64,000 nt of DNA from an uncultured delta proteobacterium (GCA_963771175.1 CAVYSY010000052.1:192001-256000), one strand, 5' to 3'; positions 35,431 to 45,480 are shown, numbered from the stretch's first letter. A program made the numbers and translations. Notes: generated by a model from the sequence alone, not told the origin.

Positions 35431-35767
35431 GCCAGCCGCTCGATGGCGATGCTGAGCACCTCGAACATCGCGCACAGTTGGGACAGCCGGCCGGAACCCG
35501 GGGCCTTCTCCACCTCCACCACCACATAGGGAGGCACCGCCTGGGAGCGCAACCTCACCTGCCATTTCTCCTTGGGCTCCAGGAGCTCGTGCTCGCCCGG
35601 TATCACCACCAGCGCCGGGTTGCCCGGCCCTGACAGCGCCCCGTGGGTTTTGTCTGCTTCTGGCGCATGAGGAGCGACCCGGGAACGGGATGCTGGCCGC
35701 GGGACTCCTCCGTAGGTTCGCGGCCGCTCACCCTGCAAGTGTGGGCGGACATCCACGGAAGGTGGCC

Positions 35768-38700
35768 ATGCGAGCGAGGCGCGCAGCTTCAGCTGTCATC
35801 ATCGCAGTGATACTGCTCGCCACCGGGCTCGGAGGCAGCGAAGCCCAGGCCCTCTCGCTGACGGTGGTGGACTCCAGCGGCCGGCCGGTGGAGGGGTTCC
35901 GCTGGCAGCTCGAGGAGGACACGACGCTGCCCGTGGTGCCTGGGGTCCGAAGCAACGACATCCCCTCCCTCACCATCCACGGCAGCTACTCCCCGGTGGT
36001 GGCCAAGGGAAGCTCCACCACGTCCGTTGCCACCATCGATGTGCCGGCGAACAAGCGCTACCTGGTGTCCGTCCTCCCGTTGAAGGGACACACCCTGAGC
36101 GGCACCCAGGTGGCGGTGGGACAGGCGCTGGTGACGGTGGTGGTGAACACCGAGCCCATCCCCACCGCTCAAATCTCCGTCCTCGTCTTCCATGACCGCC
36201 AGCCCATCAACAACGCCCCGGACATCCCCGCCGAACCGGGCCTCGCTGGCTTCTCCGTCGTGCTCTCCGACGCGCTGGGGCAGGTGTCGCAGGACGCCTT
36301 CGGCAACCCGCTGGGCACCACCTATCAACAGAACGCGGATGGCTCCTTCGTGTTGGATTCGGAGGGACTGCCGGTGGTCGCACAGCCCGGCTCCGGCGTC
36401 ATCCTCACCGATGCCGCGGGTGAGGCGCTCATCCGCTTCCTGCCTCCCGGAAAGTACGGGGTCCGCGCCGTCCCGCCCATTGGCACCGACTGGGTGCAGA
36501 CCGCGACCATCGAGGGCACTCCGACCGTCGATGCCTGGGTCAAGGCGGGCGAGCCGCCCTACTTCTCCGAGTGGGGCACCCTCGACCACCACGCCTTCAT
36601 CGGCTTTGTCCGGCCGATGCGCTTCCCCGCGCCACCCACCGGCCCGGTGGGGACCCTCACCGGGCGCGTCGTCTACGTCCACGAGAACCGCCCGCCGCTG
36701 CAGCCGGGCCTGAATCCAGGGGTTCCGGTGGAGGAGTGCTGGGTCGGGCTGAACGCACTGGGGGGCGCCGACGAGCAGGTCTACTCGCAGCCCTGCGGCC
36801 CTGGCGGCGGCTTCACCATCGAGAACGTCCCTCCGGGCGTCTACCAGCTCGTGATGTGGGACTTGCCCCTCGACGCCATCATCGACTTCCGCACCCTCAC
36901 GGTGCCTCCGGGAGGCGGAGTGCTGGCGCTCGGGGATGTGTCCGTCTATGCGTGGTTCGGCTTCCTCGAGGGCAGCGTCTTCTACGATGCCAACGCCAAT
37001 GGCTATCGGGAGCTCGGCGAGGCAGGCATCCCCAACCAGGCGCTCAACCTGCGCTTCCCGGACGGCTCGCTCTACAAGGCGACCATCACCGATCCGACCG
37101 GACGCTACCGCTTCAAGGAGGTCTTCCCCTTCTTCCACTGGCTGGTGGCCGAGGTGGACTACACCCGCTACAAGCCCACGGGGATGACCGCCGTCATCGA
37201 TGAGGGCGGCCCACTGCCGCCGGGCGCGAGGAGCACTCCGCAGCCCCAGCCCGTCATCAACCCCAACACCGGCGACAACCTCTCGCGCACCGAGAGCGGC
37301 GAGGTGCTCACCCAGGCGATGCTGCTCTACGCCGGGCAGACCCACCGGATGGACTGGGGCAAGGTGGCCTACGGCCGGACGGAGAATGGTGGCATCTCCG
37401 GAATCGTGCACTACGCCACCACCCGCGCGGAGAATGATCCGCGCTACGCCGTGGGGGATGACTGGGAGCCCAAGGTGCCCCGCGTCCAGGTGAACCTCTA
37501 CTCGGACACCAATGGCGACACCGTCATCGACGATCTCAATGGCGACGGCCGGGTGACGCCGGCGGACGTGGACAACGCGCCCTTCGACGACTTCCCCGGC
37601 CCGGGGGACGTGGATCGCAACGGCGACGGCACCTTCACCCCGGGCGACGCCCTCAACGTCATCCACACCGACAGTTGGGACGACAGCCGCCCCACCGGCT
37701 GCGTGGGCCCGCCGCAGCTCGTCCACGGGCAGCCGGTGCGGGACTGCGCGGAGACGCTGCGGACGTGGAGCCAGCTACGCCCCGGCGTGTTCGACGGAGG
37801 CTACCTCTTCTCCTCGTACTTCCCGGGGGGCATGGGCTCGGGCAGCTCGGAGGTCCAGGGGCTCCCGCCTGGCCTCTACGTGGTGGAGGCCAATCGCTCC
37901 GCCCGGGTACGAGACCGTGAAGGAGGAGGACAAGAACGTCGACTTCGGTGAGCAGACCACCCCGAACGAGCTCGTGCCTCCCGTCTGCGTGGGCGAGCCG
38001 CACCGGGTCCCCGCCGAGCTCTCGCTCTTTCCGGGCGTGCCCGCGCCCTTCGCCGGCACCACGCGCCCGCTGTGCGACCGCAAGCAGGTCCGCATGGGGC
38101 GCGGGCAGAACAGCGCGGCCGATTTCTTCGTCTTCACCGAGGTGCCCAAGGCGGGCCGCATCTGGGGAATGGTCCTCAACGACGTGCTGCTCGAGTTCAA
38201 CCCCGACAGCCCCAAGAAGGGCACCAACTTCGGGGTGCCGTGGCTGCCCATCTCCATCAAGGACTTCCGGGGCAACGAGCTCGTCCGCACCTACAGCGAC
38301 GAGTGGGGCAAGTACAACGCGCTGGTGCCCTCCACCTACACTGTGAACCGGCCCACGCCGACCGGCGTGTCCCCCGGAATGCTCACCGTCTGCCTCAACG
38401 ATCCGGGCCCCATCCCGGATCCGAGCACCCCCGGCCGGCTCATCACGGACCCCTGGTACAACCCGGCCTACGGGCACGTCTGCACGAACTGGGAGTTCTA
38501 CCCGGGAAAGACGACCCCGCTGGACACGCCCATCCTGCCCATCGCCGCCTTCACGGCGAACCGGCGTCCGCTGGACTGCGAGTTCCCGGAGGGCACGCCG
38601 CTCATCGAGTCGGTGAGCGGGCCCGCGGGAGGGCCGCACGTCCCCGCGCCCGGCGGGCTCATCACCCTCACCTCGGTGGGAGCGATGACCGTGCCCAACC

Positions 38701-40679
38701 CGGCGTATGACCCGGACACGCCCGGCAGCCCGCCCACCGTCGTCCGAGACTACGGCTTCGGCGGCACCCCCGGGACGGTGACGGTGGATGGCACCCCCTG
38801 CCCATCGTGAGCTGGGCGGCCGACGGCTCGCGCATCGTGGCGCGGGTGCCCGCGAGCGTCCGCACCGGACAGCTCCTGGTGCGGCGTGGCAACGGGAGGA
38901 CCTCCGAGATGGGCCTCACGCTGCACGTGGGCCCGCGCGCCATCCGCCGCGTCTCACCGGGCGGCTCCATCCAGCAGGCCATCGACGCCGCCCCGCTGGG
39001 GGCCCTCATCCTGGTGGCGCCCGGGACGTACAAGGAGAACCCCATCCTGTGGAAGCCCGTCCAGCTCCAGGGCTGGGGCGCCTTCTCCACCGTCATCGAG
39101 GCCGGTCCCCTCTCGCCCGCGGAGCAGGCCGCCTGGGATGCGAAGCTGGCCGCCCTCATCGACTCCGGGGATATCCAGCTCCTCCCCGGGGAGCGGCCCG
39201 ACTTCTTCCTCGAGCAAGGGGCTGGCATCACCGTGGGGTCCCGGCCAGGCCGCTTCACCGCCGGGGCGCAGGGGCGGCATCGATGGCTTCACCATCACCG
39301 GAGCCCTCAAGGGCGGCGGCATCTTCGTCAACGCCTACGCGCCGTTCCTCACGCTCAGCAACAACCGGCTCATCAGCAACCAGGGCAGCTTCGGGGGCGG
39401 CATCCGCGTGGGCACCCCCTCGCTGGTGAATACCGCGGGCAACGGCTACCTGAGCTCGAGCAACGAGAACCTCCGCATCCACCACAACCACATCACCCAG
39501 AACGGCGCCATCGACGGCGGGGGCGGCGTGGCCCTGTTCAACGGCGCGGACGGCTACCAGGTCACGGACAACTTCGTCTGCGGCAACTTCACGCTGCTGT
39601 ACGGCGGCGGCATCGCCCACTTCGGCCTGAGCGACGAGGGGCTGATCTCCCGAAACCGCATCGTCTCCAACCAGTCCTTCGACGAAGGCGGGGGGCTCAT
39701 CATCGCCGGGGAGCTCGTCCCGGCCGGGGCGCCACCCGGAACGCTGACACCTGGCGCCGGCAGCGTGCGGGTGGTCTCCAACCTCATCCAGGGCAACCAG
39801 GCCGGGGACGACGGTGGCGGCGTGCGCACGCTGATGGTCAACGGCCAGGACGTCCAGCGCCGGCCCACCTCGCCCTCGCGCTGGTACCAGGTGGCCCTCC
39901 TCAACAACCTCATCGTCAACAACTCGAGCGCCGACGTGGGCGGCGGCATTTCCCTGGATGACACCGCCCGGGCCATCGATCCTCAGCAACACCATCGCCC
40001 ACAACGACAGCACCGCCACCGGGGTGGACGCCTTCGGCGGCCCGTGCATCCCCGATGCGCCGTCGGGCCAGTTCTGTCCCGAGGAGGGAGGCACCATGGG
40101 CGGCATCACCACCTCGGTGCCGCAGGTAGCGGGCCTCGCCGCCAGGGCCCACAGCACGGGCCTCCAGGCCGCGTTCGGCCCGGGCTTCGGGCAGGAGTTA
40201 CTCCGACCCCGCTCCTCCACGACAACATCCTCTGGCACAACCGGGCCTTCTACTGGGATGCGGCGTACCGCGACGGCCTGGGCGGCCTGCGCCCGGATCT
40301 CACCGCCGGCGAGGCCCCCCACTACTGGGACCTCGCCGTGTACGGCACGCTCACGGCGCAGTTCCTCGAGCCGCACTTCTCCATCCTCTCCGAGCCCACG
40401 CCGGGAGATCCCACCAACGTGGCGGTCGATCCGCGGTTCGTCGCGGGCTACTTCAACCAGTACCAGGCGACGTCCAAGGGCTCGGCCTTCGGCAACTTCG
40501 TGACCACCACCTTCCTGCCCACCGGGCGCGTCGGTGACTACCACCTGGGCCCCGGCTCGCCCGCGAATGGCGTGGGCGCCGGCCTCTTCCGGCTCCTCTT
40601 CCCCGAGCTCCTCTTCGACATCGATGGCGAGCCGCGGCTCGGCTTCACCGTGGACGTCGGTGCGGACGAGTCACGCTGA
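35768..40679 (+). CDS. Giant secreted protein (~1,630 aa) with SdrD-B/Cna-like and IPT/TIG Ig domains and a parallel beta-helix; about 5 apparent frameshifts
   Basis: Signal peptide ending AQA; GSVFYDANANG...GEAGIPN; DxNGDG loops; GFGGTPGTVTVDG; SIQQAIDAA..G..ILVAPGTYKEN followed by N-x-I-x-x-N / GGG repeats. Stitched from five consecutive ORF pieces. Confidence 0.8.
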
Positions 40680-40703
40680 GCACCCCCCGCGAGGAGTCAC
40701 ACC

Positions 40704-41908
40704 ATGAAGGCGCTCCAGAGACTTCCCCTCCTGCTCGTGCCGCTGTGGCTGGCATTGGCCTCCGGGCCGGCCCACGCGGCCGTCTCCACCCAGTGTCCGC
40801 CGGATACCGATGGCGTGGACACCGACGGGGATGGCAACCCCGCCAACGACATCGTCTGCATCCACCTGGCCGCCGGCGACGGCTTCGTCAACATGGCCGA
40901 CGGCCGCCTCCATGTACATCTTCGGCTTCTCCAACGTCACCGGCGTCCCCGACGAGCAGGTGATGCAGGAGGCGATGCTGGGCGCCCAGCTCCCCGGCCC
41001 CCACGCTCGAGGTGAAGGGAGGGCCAGCAGCTCTACCTGACGCTCACCAACGTCGGCATGATGATGCGGCCGGACCTGTTCGACCCCCACTCGCGTCCAC
41101 TGCCACGGCTTCCCCAACGCCGCGCCGATCTTCGACGGCGTGCCCGAGGCCGCCGTCGCCATCAACATGGGCGCCAGCCTCACCTACTTCTACGACGTGC
41201 GAGCGACCCGGGCACGTACATGTACCACTGCCACGTCGAGGCGACCGAGCACATGCAGATGGGGATGCTCGGCAACCTCTACGTGCTGCCCGCGCCAGGA
41301 CGGGACGCGAGCGCGAGCACCCGCCGGGCTCGGGCCGCCCCTACCGGCAAGTTCGCCTACAACGACGGCGACGGCTCCACGGGGTACGACGTGGCCGATT
41401 CCCGCTCCAGATCGCGTCCTTCGACCCGAAGTTCCACGACGCGAGCCTCGCCATCCAGCCGCTGCCGTTCGCCGCCATGAAGGACACCTACCCGCTGCTC
41501 AACGGCCGCGGCTACCCGGAGACCATCGACCCTCTCCCGCGGAGCAACAGCTTCAACGGGCGCGCGTCCCAGCCGCTCGGCTCGCTGATCCGCGCCACGA
41601 GGGGGCAGCGGATCCTCCTGCGCCTCTCCAACCTCTCCACCACCGAGTACTTCACGCTCACCCTGCCGGGCCTCCCCATGCAGGTGGTGGGGCGGGACGC
41701 CAGGCTGCTGCGCAGCGCCTCGGGGGAGAACCTGTACCAGACCACCACCACCGTCACCCTGGGAGGCGGCGAGTCCGCGGACGTCATCCTCGACACGGCC
41801 GCCGTCCCGCCGGGGACGTACTTCCTCCACACCACCAATCTGCACCAACTGAGCAACGACACCGAGGATCTCGGCGGGATGATGACGGAGATCGTCATCA
41901 CCCCCTGA
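40704..41908 (+). CDS. Two-domain multicopper-oxidase-like subunit A (frameshifted)
   Basis: Signal peptide ending AHA; domain 1 PHSVHCHG (reconstructed across an indel) and YHCHVEATEHMQMGM; domain 2 ligand motifs degenerate. Confidence 0.85.
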
Positions 41909-41932
41909 GCAGGCCCCGGCAGGAGACGGACC

Positions 41933-43180
41933 ATGAGGCACGCATCACACGAAGGAAGGGCGCTGGCGCTGCTGCTGCTGCTGCTGCTGCCGGTGCGGCC
42001 CACGCGACCATCGACGGGGTCACCGGGCCCCAATTCGAGCTCATCGCGCGGGAGGGCTTCATCCTGACTCCGGATGGCAACAGCATCTACACCTGGGGCT
42101 ACGGCGTGGCGGGAGGAGACATGCAGTACCCCGGCCCCACCCTCATCGTGAACCAGGGGGAGCTCGTCACCCTTCAGCTGACCAACGAGCTGCCCGTCCC
42201 GGTGTCGATTGTCTTTCCCGGCCAGGAAGGCGTGGCGGCCACGGGCGGTGTGCCGGGGCTGCTGACCCGCGAGGCCGGGCCGGGCGAGTCCGTGAGCTAT
42301 ACGTTCCGGGCGAGCGAGCCGGGCACGTACCTCTACCACAGCGGCACCCGGCCCGAGCTCCAGGTGGAGATGGGGCTGGTGGGCGCGCTCATCGTCCGTC
42401 CGGCCACCCCCGGGCAGGCCTACTCGCACCCCGCCACGGCCTTCGATCATGAGTACCTCTTCCTGCTCACGGAGATGGATCCGCGCATCCACGAGCAGGT
42501 GGAGCAGGGGAGGATGGAGCAGGTGGACACGACCGACTACCGCCCGGTCTACTGGTTCATCAACGGGCGTGCCTCGCCGGACACCATGGCCCCGGCCGGC
42601 GCGCCCTGGCTGCCGAACCAGCCCTACGACTGCATGCCGATGATGCACCCGGGGGAGACGATCCTGCTGCGGATGATCGGCGCCGGGAGGGATCCGCATC
42701 CGTTCCACACGCACGGCAACCACGCGACCGTCATCGCCCGGGACGGCACGGCTGCTGGAGAGCGCTCCCGGCTTGGGACCGGACCTGGCGCGTGAGCACT
42801 TCACCGTGACGGTGGCGCCCGGGCAGACGACGGACGCGCTGTTCCGGTGGACCGGTGAGAAGCTCGGCTGGGACATCTACGGCCACGCCGCGGGCGACGC
42901 GCCGCAGCCGGGCGAGTACGCGCCGGACCATGGCAAGCCCTTCCCCGTGGCGCTGCCCCACAGCAACGAGCTCACCTTCGGCGACTTCTACAGCGGCACG
43001 CCCTTCCTCGGGGTGCTCGGGCCGCTCCCTCCCGGACAGGGGACGCTCAACCTGGAGGGCAGGGCTACTTCTTCATGTGGCACTCCCATGCCGAGCGGGA
43101 GATGGTGAACAACGACGTCTTCCCCGGGGGGATGATGACCATGCTCATGATCGTCCCCCCGGGCGTCGACGATTCCGTGA
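41933..43180 (+). CDS. Two-domain multicopper-oxidase-like subunit B (frameshifted)
   Basis: Poly-Leu signal; PGPTLIVNQG; domain 1 degenerate (VSIVFPG, YHSGT); domain 2 HPFHTHG and WHSH. The stop at 43180 is inferred across an indel. Confidence 0.82.
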
Positions 43181-43197
43181 AGGAAGAGGGTGGAGAC

Positions 43198-44211
43198 ATG
43201 AGGACGTGTCACGGTCGATCGCTGCTCTTCCTCGGCCTGGTGGTGGCCTCCCTCGAGGCCTCCGCCGCCGAGTACTTCCTCCAGGTCCAGCCCCTGTCCC
43301 GCACCATGCCCGATGGGCAGGTCGTCACGATGTGGGGGTACGCACTGGACGAGGATCACGACTTCACGACCCTGGACTCGCCAGTCACCGTGCCAGGGCC
43401 GCGGCTCGAGGTGCCCGCTGGGGACACGACGCTGACCGTCCACCTCTACAACGGGCTGACGGTCCCCACCTCGCTGCTCCTCCCGGGCCAGGTGACGGCC
43501 CTGTCACCGACCTGGGTGGATGGCGGCGCCGTCTACGTGGGCCAGCGGCCCGCGGGCAACGTCACCGCCCGGGTCCGCTCCCTCACGCAGGAGACGGCTC
43601 CCGGGACGGCCGGGGTGTACTCGTGGACGGGCTTGAAGCCAGGGACGTGGCTGTACCAGAGCGGCACCCACTCGGCGGTCCAGGTCCAGATGGGGCTGTA
43701 TGGCGCGATGGTGAAGGCGGCTGGCGCCGGCGAGGCCTACCCTGGCATTGCGTACGAGCGGGAGGTCACCCTCCTCTTCAGCGAGGTAGACCCGGTCCTC
43801 CACGAGGCGGTGGCCAGTGGCACCTATGGGCCGGGCGGCACCGTCACCAGCACCATCGGCTACCAGCCGCGGTACTTCCTCATCAATGGTGAGCCGTACT
43901 CGGCCGCGGTGAGCCCGTTGCCCGCGGGGCGCGTGGGGGAGCGGATCCTCCTGCGCTTCCTCAGCGCCGGACAGCAGACGCGAGTCCCGGTGCTGCAGGG
44001 CGCATACCTGTCGCTGGTGGCGGAGGGAGGGAGCCCACTGCGCTACCCCCAGCGCCAGTACTCGGTGCTGCTGCCAGCGGGCGGCACGGTGGATGCGTTG
44101 CTGACCCCGGGGGCCCCGGGAGTCCTGCCGCTGTACGACCGGCGGCTGGGGCTCTCCAACGGCACGGCCACCGGTGGAGGAATGCTGCGCCTGCTCCAGG
44201 TCTCCCCTTGA
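43198..44211 (+). CDS. Two-domain cupredoxin subunit C, lacking copper ligands
   Basis: RBS and signal peptide ending ASA; VPGPRLEV, TSLLLPG, YQSGTHSAVQVQMGLYG, YFLING. Confidence 0.85.
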   Translation: MRTCHGRSLLFLGLVVASLEASAAEYFLQVQPLSRTMPDGQVVTMWGYALDEDHDFTTLDSPVTVPGPRLEVPAGDTTLTVHLYNGLTVPTSLLLPGQVTALSPTWVDGGAVYVGQRPAGNVTARVRSLTQETAPGTAGVYSWTGLKPGTWLYQSGTHSAVQVQMGLYGAMVKAAGAGEAYPGIAYEREVTLLFSEVDPVLHEAVASGTYGPGGTVTSTIGYQPRYFLINGEPYSAAVSPLPAGRVGERILLRFLSAGQQTRVPVLQGAYLSLVAEGGSPLRYPQRQYSVLLPAGGTVDALLTPGAPGVLPLYDRRLGLSNGTATGGGMLRLLQVSP

Positions 44212-44243
44212 GGGCCCGGCGGCCCGCGAGGCAGGGAGGAAAC

Positions 44244-44705
44244 ATGCACGGAAGAACCGCGAGCTGCTCGGTACTGGGCGTGACGGCCCTGGCGATGCAC
44301 CTCCTGCTGGGGGCGGCGGGCTGCGCCTCCAGCCGCTCCGTGAGGGCTCCAGCGGCGACACCGCGGGAGGAGCTCGCGGAGCGATGGGGGGTGGAGGTGC
44401 AAGGGATTCGGCGGGTGGCCGCTGGCTACGTCCTGGACTTCCGCTACCGGGTGGTGGATCCGGAGAAGGCGGCGCCACTGTTCGAGCGGCGCGTGAAACC
44501 CTACCTCGAGGACCCCTCGACGGGCGCGAGGTTCCAGGTCCCCAGGCCACCCAAGGTCGGCTCGCTCCGTCAGACCCCAGCCGCGCCCGTGGACAACCGG
44601 ACCTACTTCATCCTGTTCGCCAACCCGGGCCGTGCCCTCGAGCCGGGAAGCCGGGTGACGGTAGTGATTGGAGACTTCCAGGCGACAGACGTGACGGTGG
44701 AGTAG
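44244..44705 (+). CDS. Small beta-rich lipoprotein, last gene of the oxidase operon
   Basis: GGAGG RBS; lipobox AAGC; WGVEV..IR..AAGY.LDFRYRV.DPEKA, YFILFANPG. Confidence 0.8.
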   Translation: MHGRTASCSVLGVTALAMHLLLGAAGCASSRSVRAPAATPREELAERWGVEVQGIRRVAAGYVLDFRYRVVDPEKAAPLFERRVKPYLEDPSTGARFQVPRPPKVGSLRQTPAAPVDNRTYFILFANPGRALEPGSRVTVVIGDFQATDVTVE

Positions 44706-44736: not shown

Positions 44737-45480
44737 CTACGGAGTGGAGGCCGGCATGCAACCCCACTGCTTCAGGTCCTCGGAGACCGTGGTGCATCGC
44801 CATCCCTTGCCACAGGAATCCAGGTCGAGTGGATCGCACCGGCTGAAGCACGTGCTCACGGTGGCGCTCCCCATTCCGCAAATCTGACCGCCGGGGCAGC
44901 TGTCCGCCAGCAGCGGATTGCAGATGCGCGCGCACCAGAAGACTCCGTGAGCCCGAATCACCTCCGCGTTACAGCGTTCGCCCGGGCCACACGGCGTTTC
45001 GGGACAGTCCCCCTGGATGCGCGCGAGGCATCGGTATTCGGAGTCGCCGAGGCGTTTGCACCGTTCTCCCCGAGGACAGCCGAGCTTCCGGCAGTCCGCA
45101 TGGCACGCCGGGCCATCGAGGGAATCCTCACACGAATGTCCATCGGGACAGCTCAACGGCTCATCCAGCCGACAACGCACGCCACATGTCCCGGAGAGGC
45201 ACACCAGCCCCTCCCGACAAGCCCCCCCCGGAGAGACGTACCCGAAATCGCATGGCTCTCCTTCTCCGCGTTCACCCTCGGGCGTGCAGCGGCGGACGAC
45301 CACGCCCGTGGCCCCGGTGGTCACCGCACGGCAGACGGAGCCAGGGAAGCAATGCACGTCCTCCTCGCATTCCGAGGCCATGCACTCGAAGCGGCGGGTC
45401 TCTCGATTTCCCACACACCCCTGCCCCGGCGGACAGTCGCCATCGATACGGCAACTCCCACAATTGAAGAACGTCCCCGC
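44737..45480 (-). CDS. Cysteine-rich repeat protein, 5' end disrupted or uncertain
   Basis: More than 30 Cys in C-x(4-5)-C units. The frame stays open upstream of the called GTG (CGSCRIDGDCPPGQGC) but has no signal peptide or clear start. Confidence 0.6.
   Translation of the reverse strand, partial: AGTFFNCGSCRIDGDCPPGQGCVGNRETRRFECMASECEEDVHCFPGSVCRAVTTGATGVVVRRCTPEGERGEGEPCDFGYVSPGGACREGLVCLSGTCGVRCRLDEPLSCPDGHSCEDSLDGPACHADCRKLGCPRGERCKRLGDSEYRCLARIQGDCPETPCGPGERCNAEVIRAHGVFWCARICNPLLADSCPGGQICGMGSATVSTCFSRCDPLDLDSCGKGWRCTTVSEDLKQWGCMPASTP

Follow-up and report, generated by a model that had tools for sequence, protein, structure and literature searches.

Three adjacent two-domain cupredoxin paralogues with complementary copper ligands: a candidate heterotrimeric, single-site multicopper oxidase

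Two-domain multicopper oxidases of type C are made of chains with two cupredoxin domains each, and their trinuclear copper cluster is built where domain 1 of a chain meets domain 2 of its neighbour. The copper nitrite reductase NirK is likewise a trimer, in which the catalytic copper site lies at the subunit interface and is fed by the type 1 (T1) copper site in domain 1. In ceruloplasmin, six cupredoxin domains form a pseudo-threefold ring, and one of the domain interfaces holds the only trinuclear cluster. To our knowledge, the eight cluster histidines of all known multicopper oxidases reside either in one chain or in the identical chains of a homotrimer; a gene triplication followed by division of the ligands has been proposed as the origin of the six-domain oxidases, but we know of no case in which it has been observed. 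Here we describe a locus in a stretch of 64,000 nucleotides (nt) from an uncultured delta proteobacterium (GCA_963771175.1, CAVYSY010000052.1:192001-256000; the window hereafter), whose G+C content is approximately 70%. Three successive genes for proteins of the multicopper-oxidase cupredoxin fold, called A, B and C in this report, occupy positions 40704 to 44211 of its plus strand, as found by three-frame translation of 40600-44300, the list of open reading frames (ORFs) and Pfam matches. We propose, with a probability of about 0.7, that A and B form a heteromer with a shared copper cluster and that C is the third member of the ring, the whole being an obligate heterotrimeric, single-site oxidase.

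Division of the copper ligands over three paralogues

Since the window copies of A and B are broken by 14 frameshifting insertions, the protein work was done with the intact orthologous genes of Myxococcus sp. RHSTA-1-4 (locus L001), which served as the reference together with 79 further loci; residue numbers follow L001. In that genome the three genes are distinct, and each has a start of its own, an N-terminal hydrophobic signal (judged by eye) and a stop of its own. Their products comprise 396, 421 and 337 amino acids (aa), respectively, rather than six cupredoxin domains in a single polypeptide as in ceruloplasmin; the mature chains together amount to about 1,074 residues, and no B among the loci is shorter than that of L001.

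That the three are paralogous two-domain cupredoxins, as an earlier note on this DNA had claimed, is borne out by Pfam domains in all of them and by profile comparisons. In the window, the C-terminal piece of A matches Cu-oxidase (1.1e-9), B matches Cu-oxidase_3 (1.3e-16) and Cu-oxidase_2 (7.7e-8), and C matches Cu-oxidase_3 (1.6e-4). In L001, A matches Cu-oxidase_3 (2.1e-14), Cu-oxidase_2 (2.8e-13) and Cu-oxidase (5.5e-10), and B matches Cu-oxidase_3 (2e-16). The score of C is 22.2 bits in the window and 17.8 bits in L001, the latter under the 21-bit cut-off. Profile-profile comparison connects C to B (E 5.4e-62 over 251 columns) and A to B (E 1.6e-42 over 309 columns), with a probability of 100 in both cases. 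No curated NCBIfam cut-off was reached, including those for CopA/PcoA, CueO, laccase, ascorbate oxidase and FtsP, the best score being 60.9 bits against a cut-off of 478.95 (TIGR01480). With the NirK model TIGR02376, A, B and C score 38.8, 44.8 and 20.7 bits, below its cut-off of 296.3, and they are thus not members of that family. The closest solved structures are the two-domain multicopper oxidases 3G5W ('Multicopper oxidase type 1') and 2ZWN ('two-domain type laccase'), both of type C, followed by copper nitrite reductases; E values are 2.3e-14 (A) and 3.6e-13 (B) for 3G5W and about 1e-11 for NirK. Ceruloplasmin is absent from the best 60 PDB matches listed for A and B. The earlier description of the system as 'split ceruloplasmin-like' is an architectural analogy, the actual kin being type-C two-domain oxidases such as 3G5W.

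Gene A (40704-41908, plus strand) carries the ligands of a T1 copper site and four histidines of a trinuclear cluster, all in domain 1. In three-frame translation it reads DPHS, a shift of one base, then VHCHGFPN, and further downstream YHCHVEATEHMQMGM. The first motif, H-S-(one inserted base)-V-H-C-H-G at 41088-41109 (plus), begins with a T1 histidine, its next two histidines being cluster ligands. The second, H-C-H-V-E-A-T-E-H-M-Q-M-G-M at 41226-41267 (plus), provides the Cys, a His and the axial Met of the T1 site, and the two histidines that flank the Cys are cluster ligands. Its spacing is HCH-x5-H-x2-M-G-M and not HCH-x4-H as first reported. The first motif had been read as H-S-V-H-C-H-G, which is indeed present but spans the frameshift, and its Cys occurs in 0 of 78 relatives; these have W, F, Y or V there, so that their motif is HxxH(W/F/Y/V)HG. 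The codon concerned, which lies between the two cluster histidines (41101-41103) in an error-dense stretch, is TGC (Cys) in the window and TGG (Trp) in L001.

Gene B (41933-43180, plus strand, start ATG at 41933) has four complementary cluster histidines in domain 2 only and is without a T1 site. Three-frame translation places HPFHTHG at 42697-42717 and WHSH, within WHSHAEREM, at 43078-43089 (both plus), the Ser of the latter standing at the T1 Cys position of other multicopper oxidases. Gene C (43198-44211, plus strand) is intact in the window and encodes a two-domain cupredoxin subunit of 337 aa without copper ligands, which contains neither the A nor the B motifs.

Domain 1 of 3G5W (HTIHWHG ... 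YHCHVNVNEHVTM) aligns with both motifs of A with identical spacing, and its domain 2 (HAIHTHG ... HDH) aligns with both motifs of B. These alignments indicate that A kept the domain-1 set and B the domain-2 set of one ancestral chain, and C neither. The type-C oxidases share with the present proteins the two cupredoxin domains per chain, the T1 site in domain 1 with its HCH-x5-H-x4-M spacing, and a domain 2 with HxxHxH and a Cys-less H-x-H. They differ in that they are homotrimers with both histidine sets in each chain, and hence three T1 sites and three clusters, whereas the present arrangement would allow no more than one T1 site and one cluster for every three chains. Of the three proteins, A alone has a T1 site in the first domain of its two-domain chain, while B and C have the fold without it, and both histidine sets in each chain are found in none of the 80 loci: A is without the domain-2 set, B without the domain-1 set and C without both. 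Since the Ser position of the HSH of B is already Cys-less (Asp) in 3G5W, domain 2 of B probably never had a T1 site. B further differs from 3G5W by an insert of approximately 70 aa in domain 2 (L001 ~313-365; window ~42860-43020), absent also from A and C, with a conserved W313 and the stretch FYSGSPFLG.

The partition was followed in loci collected with a 250-aa piece of B as the query against one genome per species, the best 80 of 100 confirmed relatives being kept. In A, two genes of which are truncated, the ligands His130, His132, His172, Cys173, His180 and Met185 are each present in 78 of 78 loci, and His127 and His174 in 77 of 78 each. For B, the domain-2 pattern HPxHxH is summarised as present in 80/80 loci. 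Residue by residue, His266 and His268 are found in 80/80 each, and His263, the first His of the HPFHTHG motif, in 72/80, with Tyr or Phe in the others. The H-x-H formed by His390 and His392 is found in 73 of 78 aligned sequences. Of the five misfits, four (L005, L014, L021 and L031) carry WHSH after an insert of approximately 90 aa, and the fifth (L018) is cut by the contig end. The residue between these two histidines is Ser (65), Asn (8) or Gly (3), and never Cys. T1 ligands (His, Cys, His and axial Met) are confined to domain 1 of A, the other five domains being without them, and in the per-locus table the corresponding positions in domain 2 of A, in domain 1 of B and in both domains of C are without His in all 80 loci. 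Domain 2 of A has Phe or Tyr, Thr, and Pro, Leu or Met at the cluster positions, which implies that an A-A interface would carry only half a cluster. Among the invariant or 90%-conserved columns of C there is no His, Cys or Met.

The ligand set of A in domain 1 only, the histidines of B in domain 2 only with Ser for Cys, and the ligand-free C had all been read correctly in the earlier note, as confirmed by translation and by the 80 loci. It follows, as was also held there, that no chain would be able to form a trinuclear centre alone, given four histidines in A, four in B and none in C. The retention of the partition in homologous operons had been set as a test beforehand, and it proved almost invariant. 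Its recurrence in 80 independent loci is far beyond chance.

Two further conserved features touch on A and B. A linker motif, D-P-x-(F/I)-H, places a His between the domains (L001 A His240 and B His194; window ~41430 and ~42490), which is conserved in 78/80 A and 80/80 B sequences and forms the consensus in C; we take it not to be a known copper ligand position. The start of mature A (L001 25-55; window 40776-40870) is a Cys-flanked, Asp- and Gly-rich segment with the consensus QCPGD..GD...C.HL.AGDGF, absent from 3G5W, and looks like a calcium-binding or disulfide-stapled extension.

The three genes keep company. Neither random ligand loss nor single occurrence was seen, A, B and C being adjacent in 80/80 loci found with the B bait: in all 80, B is immediately preceded by an A-type gene on its own strand, and it is immediately followed by a C-type gene in 77 of the 77 loci whose contig is long enough, those of L018, L063 and L079 ending too early. 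The loci belong to Pseudomonadota (23), Thermodesulfobacteriota (10), Myxococcota (9), Acidobacteriota (9), Nitrospirota (8), Actinomycetota (7), Chloroflexota (4), Kiritimatiellota (2), Planctomycetota (2) and Binatota (1), with 5 unassigned; the A-B-C arrangement thus occurs in at least 10 named phyla, among them lineages whose names refer to sulfate reducers and other anaerobes. Cultured strains that carry it are Myxococcus sp. RHSTA-1-4, Methylocaldum sp. GT1BB and Paraburkholderia ginsengiterrae DCY85. When 1.84 billion cluster representatives were searched with C, matches at E<=1e-30 fell into 841 clusters (50% identity). The maximum-likelihood tree combines the A, B and C proteins of 27 loci, picked for diversity from 62 complete ones. 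In it, a single branch separates each of A, B and C from the other sequences, with SH-aLRT (Shimodaira-Hasegawa-like approximate likelihood ratio test) values of 100, 95 and 94, respectively, and the same two sub-clades recur inside all three. These clades with their parallel sub-clades indicate one old triplication followed by joint inheritance. Family members bear generic names, 'multicopper oxidase domain-containing protein' or 'hypothetical protein', and pipelines that annotate one gene at a time would label the three as defective or generic oxidases and overlook the enzyme.

The same ligand pattern might be taken as the leftover decay of three duplicated oxidases that act separately and form no cluster, with A as a T1 carrier or NirK-like protein, B as a copper-binding protein or chaperone and C as a structural protein. 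No single chain has a full ligand set, the family falls below every curated cut-off mentioned above (60.9 against 478.95 bits at best), and NirK is among the nearest solved relatives, all of which would suit such a view. Random decay, however, would not keep eight complementary histidines over 80 loci, 10 phyla and hundreds of clusters. Moreover, the HxH and HCH of A together with the HxH and HxH of B constitute the cluster pattern of 3G5W and not the T2 (type 2) pattern of NirK; the latter shares the two-domain cupredoxin chain but binds one T2 copper by three histidines, whereas A and B together carry the eight-His pattern. A structural model of the A-B complex also sets both histidine sets face to face (see below). 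Separate action is in our view highly improbable.

The A-B contact and the position of C

Complex prediction was carried out with A (residues 25-396) and B (34-421) of L001, using for each an alignment of 62 rows with matched locus order. The score was 0.91 in 3 of 3 runs, and the best of 3 controls reached 0.00. A mark of 0.91 was attained by 116 of 157 solved complexes and by 2 of 215 mismatched pairs, counts that are only rough since the alignments were own-made. The runs agreed in at least 96% of contacts, with partner values of the predicted local distance difference test (pLDDT) of at least 92. A two-chain model was free to use either ring interface, A(D1)/B(D2) or B(D1)/A(D2), D1 and D2 denoting the two domains. 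All B contact residues are at position 211 or beyond, which places domain 2 of B against domain 1 of A. On the A side the contacts include residues 126, 132-140, 174-179 and 181-182, as well as 27, 29 and 31 of the N-terminal extension. The B-specific insert in domain 2, which has no counterpart in A, contributes 23 of the 62 B contact residues. Its absence from A and 3G5W indicates that this part of the interface was not copied from homotrimers. The earlier note had also named an A/B histidine interface in models as a test, and such an interface does appear in the A-B model: the predicted contact is between the expected domains and its list includes five of the eight cluster histidines, A His132 and His174 and B His266, His268 and His392. 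Both this test and that of the homologous operons support the interpretation of the earlier note.

The anatomy of the locus, taken together with what is known of two-domain oxidases and NirK, suggests how such an assembly would work. A, B and C would be ancient paralogues of a type-C two-domain multicopper oxidase, among which the ancestral ligands have been divided and which would be functional only together. Each protein would be exported on its own signal peptide, and the most likely arrangement is a pseudo-threefold A-B-C ring of six cupredoxin domains, in which domain 1 of A would pack on domain 2 of B. A single trinuclear copper cluster would then be held by His130, His132, His172 and His174 of A and His266, His268, His390 and His392 of B. 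The T1 copper of A (His127, Cys173, His180 and Met185) would accept electrons from the substrate and pass them via the His172-Cys173-His174 bridge of A to the cluster, where O2 would be reduced to water. C would fill the third ring position, in most genomes with immunoglobulin (Ig)- or cadherin-like domains attached, and the other two interfaces would be structural. The ring would be tethered to the product of gene G (see below) and accompanied by the lipoprotein D, as a secreted or cell-surface oxidase. One lead to the substrate is the presence of the axial Met and two conserved Glu beside the T1 His, one of these Glu being common to 3G5W.

A and B might instead form a catalytic heteromer by themselves, as A-B-B, A-A-B or a larger A/B oligomer, C being a separate adaptor or adhesin that attaches it to the cell surface or to G. 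In keeping with this, the complex model covers the A-B contact alone, C evolves faster than its partners (its mean column identity is 29%, that of A 37% and that of B 41%), and the positions of C that correspond to the acceptor face show no conservation above background. C also usually bears C-terminal Big_9, cadherin-like, He_PIG or LamG domains of adhesin-like character, which the C of the window does not have. On the other hand, C keeps the full two-domain fold of B, as documented by the 251-column profile alignment, and it is present in every long-enough locus and has co-diverged with A and B. Fusions point in the same direction. In at least 66 of 80 loci the triad is adjoined by a homologue of G, a gene for a giant secreted protein. 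L034, L056 and L063 have G fused to the N-terminus of A, and L064, L067 and L069 have it fused to the C-terminus of C. That both A and C serve as fusion partner of G, in different genomes, speaks for an assembly that contains the two, and there is one apparent fusion of B to C. We consider it quite unlikely that C stands outside the ring.

Several observations weigh against an obligate A-B-C heterotrimer and should be set beside those that favor it. We infer the place of C in a 1:1:1 ring from its full two-domain fold, constant presence, co-divergence and the fusions. The apparent B-linker-C fusion (P0005, 870 aa) is one sequence on one contig, and the long relatives inspected included no A-B fusion, weak evidence in itself. 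All loci were recovered with B as the bait, and lone A-like or C-like genes elsewhere thus fall outside the sample. The only degenerate case is locus L025, where two ligand positions of A are occupied by Cys and Gln. As regards the model, A His130, A His172 and B His390 are not named among the contacts, and a pass in a family with solved look-alike complexes, such as the homotrimeric two-domain oxidases and NirK, may reflect memory, and attests likeness rather than binding. The modelled faces of A and B are not significantly more conserved than the rest (p = 0.09 and 0.34), nor are the equivalent positions in B, C and A, in tests that are powerless. Finally, A and B of the window itself are not readable as given. 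A value of p = 0.022 for the donor-equivalent positions of C is not relied on.

Literature searches, from which most subscription journals fell outside, found no multicopper oxidase made of different, ligand-complementary subunits, in line with the statement of the earlier note that no characterised example was known. Compared with ceruloplasmin, a single chain that has its T1 sites in the even-numbered domains and its cluster where the first domain meets the last, the present system would distribute its six domains over three separately exported chains. In the phosphopantothenoylcysteine decarboxylase Hal3/Vhs3/Cab3 of yeast, the single active site draws its residues from two different subunits. 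This enzyme, homotrimeric elsewhere, is reported to be a heterotrimer of paralogues in yeast (PMC4626798). The parallel is conceptual, the fold and chemistry being unrelated and there being no metal cluster.

Association of a multicopper oxidase with products of its own operon has precedents. The Bacillus Mnx complex includes a multicopper oxidase that purifies with proteins of the same operon. Similarly, the iodide oxidase IoxA/IoxC is reported to purify with further proteins of the same operon, with genes for SCO1-type chaperones nearby (PMC9415286). The shared features are the partner genes in the operon and, in L003, a SCO1/SenC gene that also follows the cluster. Identity with IoxA/IoxC was rejected, since the 62-kDa IoxA itself holds all four copper-binding regions and does not need its partners for ligands (PMC9415286). 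The archaeal Nmar_1354 'heterotrimer' was also discarded as a precedent, being an alpha-alpha-alpha' assembly of one gene product in which one copy is without the pendant domain (PMC11761707).

If the A-B-C heterotrimer is real, it would represent a new quaternary solution in a much-studied family, with a cluster formed by two gene products and a ligand-free third protein that closes the ring. It would also show how a symmetric enzyme with three sites can become an asymmetric one with a single site by triplication and division of the ligands.

State of the genes in the window

The closest relative found for the window locus is L001, with 89% nucleotide identity over 8.7 kb. Relative to L001, the window has 24 insertions or deletions (indels) of 1-2 nt, all within 37896-43184; 21 are insertions in the window and 0 lie in homopolymer runs. 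Gene A has 10 frameshifting insertions of 1-2 nt within 490 bp (40912-41398) and gene B has four, at 41984, 42745, 43061 and 43170. There are six frameshifting indels in the window copy of gene G, and none at all in C, D and the first 1.9 kb of G. The base inserted at 43170 gives rise to an apparent B-C read-through ORF (43075-44211). When it is discounted, B ends ...VEIP-TGA as in L001, with the stop at 43178-43180. The damage is local, given that a frame plot of G+C content at third codon positions shows long frame-stable genes elsewhere in the window.

We read the insertions in G, A and B as a local assembly error, the alternative being a very recent pseudogene. The confinement of the 24 indels to one segment of G, A and B, with C, D and the first 1.9 kb of G spared and genes elsewhere in stable frames, is what a recent inactivation of this operon by real insertions of 1-2 nt might leave behind. 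Yet a preponderance of insertions (21 of 24), with none in a homopolymer, is unusual for natural decay. Furthermore, once the insertions are discounted, G, A and B are without in-frame stops, and their ratios of non-synonymous to synonymous substitution rates (dN/dS) against L001 (0.31, 0.36 and 0.26, respectively) are the same as those of the undamaged C (0.29) and D (0.38). All ligand codons are intact in the window copy. A recently inactivated gene cluster is therefore considered unlikely in this genome.

Partner proteins, fusions and neighbouring genes

Gene G (35690-40679, plus strand, delimited from ORFs; start at 35690 or at an internal ATG at 35765) encodes a giant secreted protein of approximately 1,640 aa, and its L001 counterpart is at L001:2-4684. 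The protein consists of SdrD_B-like/CarboxypepD_reg beta-sandwiches, Asp-rich segments and a C-terminal right-handed beta-helix, with Pfam matches to SdrD_B (6.3e-14) and Beta_helix (1.1e-5) and an IPT-like segment recognised by eye. Its last 621 aa were modelled by AlphaFold2 (AF2) with a pLDDT of 90.5 and a predicted template modelling score of 0.92. A fold search with the beta-helix returned generic carbohydrate- or polysaccharide-active beta-helix enzymes alone, with low TM-scores (template modelling scores) of 0.2-0.44; this generic resemblance is a further lead to the substrate. Membership of G in the NosD family was rejected, the weak NosD N-terminal match scoring 25.9 bits against a cut-off of 300. 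Gene D (44244-44705, plus strand), which directly follows C in 60 of 80 loci, encodes a small lipoprotein-like protein of 153 aa outside the named families, for which AF2 gave a confident Ig-like beta-sandwich (pLDDT 89.6). Searches for relatives of D gave no Pfam or NCBIfam match, generic Ig-like folds alone with no PDB neighbour at E<=0.001, and only unnamed clusters in the Atlas, and D has no conserved His, Cys or Met.

The presence of G and D, the adhesin-like domains of C and the downstream neighbours point to a secreted or surface-bound machine. The fixed association with the giant beta-helix protein G suggests, if the oxidase exists as proposed, that it acts at the surface on a substrate that is possibly polymeric or mineral. 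It appears slightly better than an even chance that these loci represent a widespread, undescribed class of obligate pseudo-symmetric A-B-C heterotrimers with one T1 site and one cluster, tethered to G and D as a five-part cell-surface machine, and that this class is a living step between the homotrimeric two-domain and the single-site six-domain oxidases.

Long relatives provide additional domain combinations. A has 227 of them at E<=1e-20; 120 of these were listed and 7 were read. For B there were 19, of which 11 were read. Those of A that were read comprise G-A fusions, N- or C-terminal extensions and fusions to domains resembling PAP2 or vanadium chloroperoxidase (VCPO), and a beta-helix Pfam family occurs in 12 among the 120 listed. 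The long relatives of B that were read, apart from P0005, show various extensions, and two further candidate fusions, P0004 and P0013, were dismissed as frameshift read-throughs. In many genomes A carries an N-terminal domain of approximately 430 aa that corresponds to PAP2 and to the second helical bundle of VCPO. It is present on 22 among the 120 listed long A relatives, and also in L004:3456-5855, L007:3465-5858 and the protein P0031; a PAP2/VCPO-like domain is found on B in P0001 and P0002. In P0050, a relative of A is fused to an alkaline phosphatase. These fusions may be clues to the substrate or the chemistry.

Downstream of D, an S8 subtilase is encoded in four loci (L002:10939-12741, L003:9649-12511, L010:9612-11528 and L024:9359-11807), in two cases with a putative metal-binding motif of the MopE type. 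L003 also has the SCO1/SenC copper chaperone and L024 a DsbA-like protein, and the window and L001 contain neither these nor the subtilase. The similarity between the window and L001 ends with gene D (44703 onward), so that the five genes G, A, B, C and D look like a shared block. After D, the window continues with a gene for a Cys-rich protein on the minus strand (44737-45414), and L001 with a different gene.

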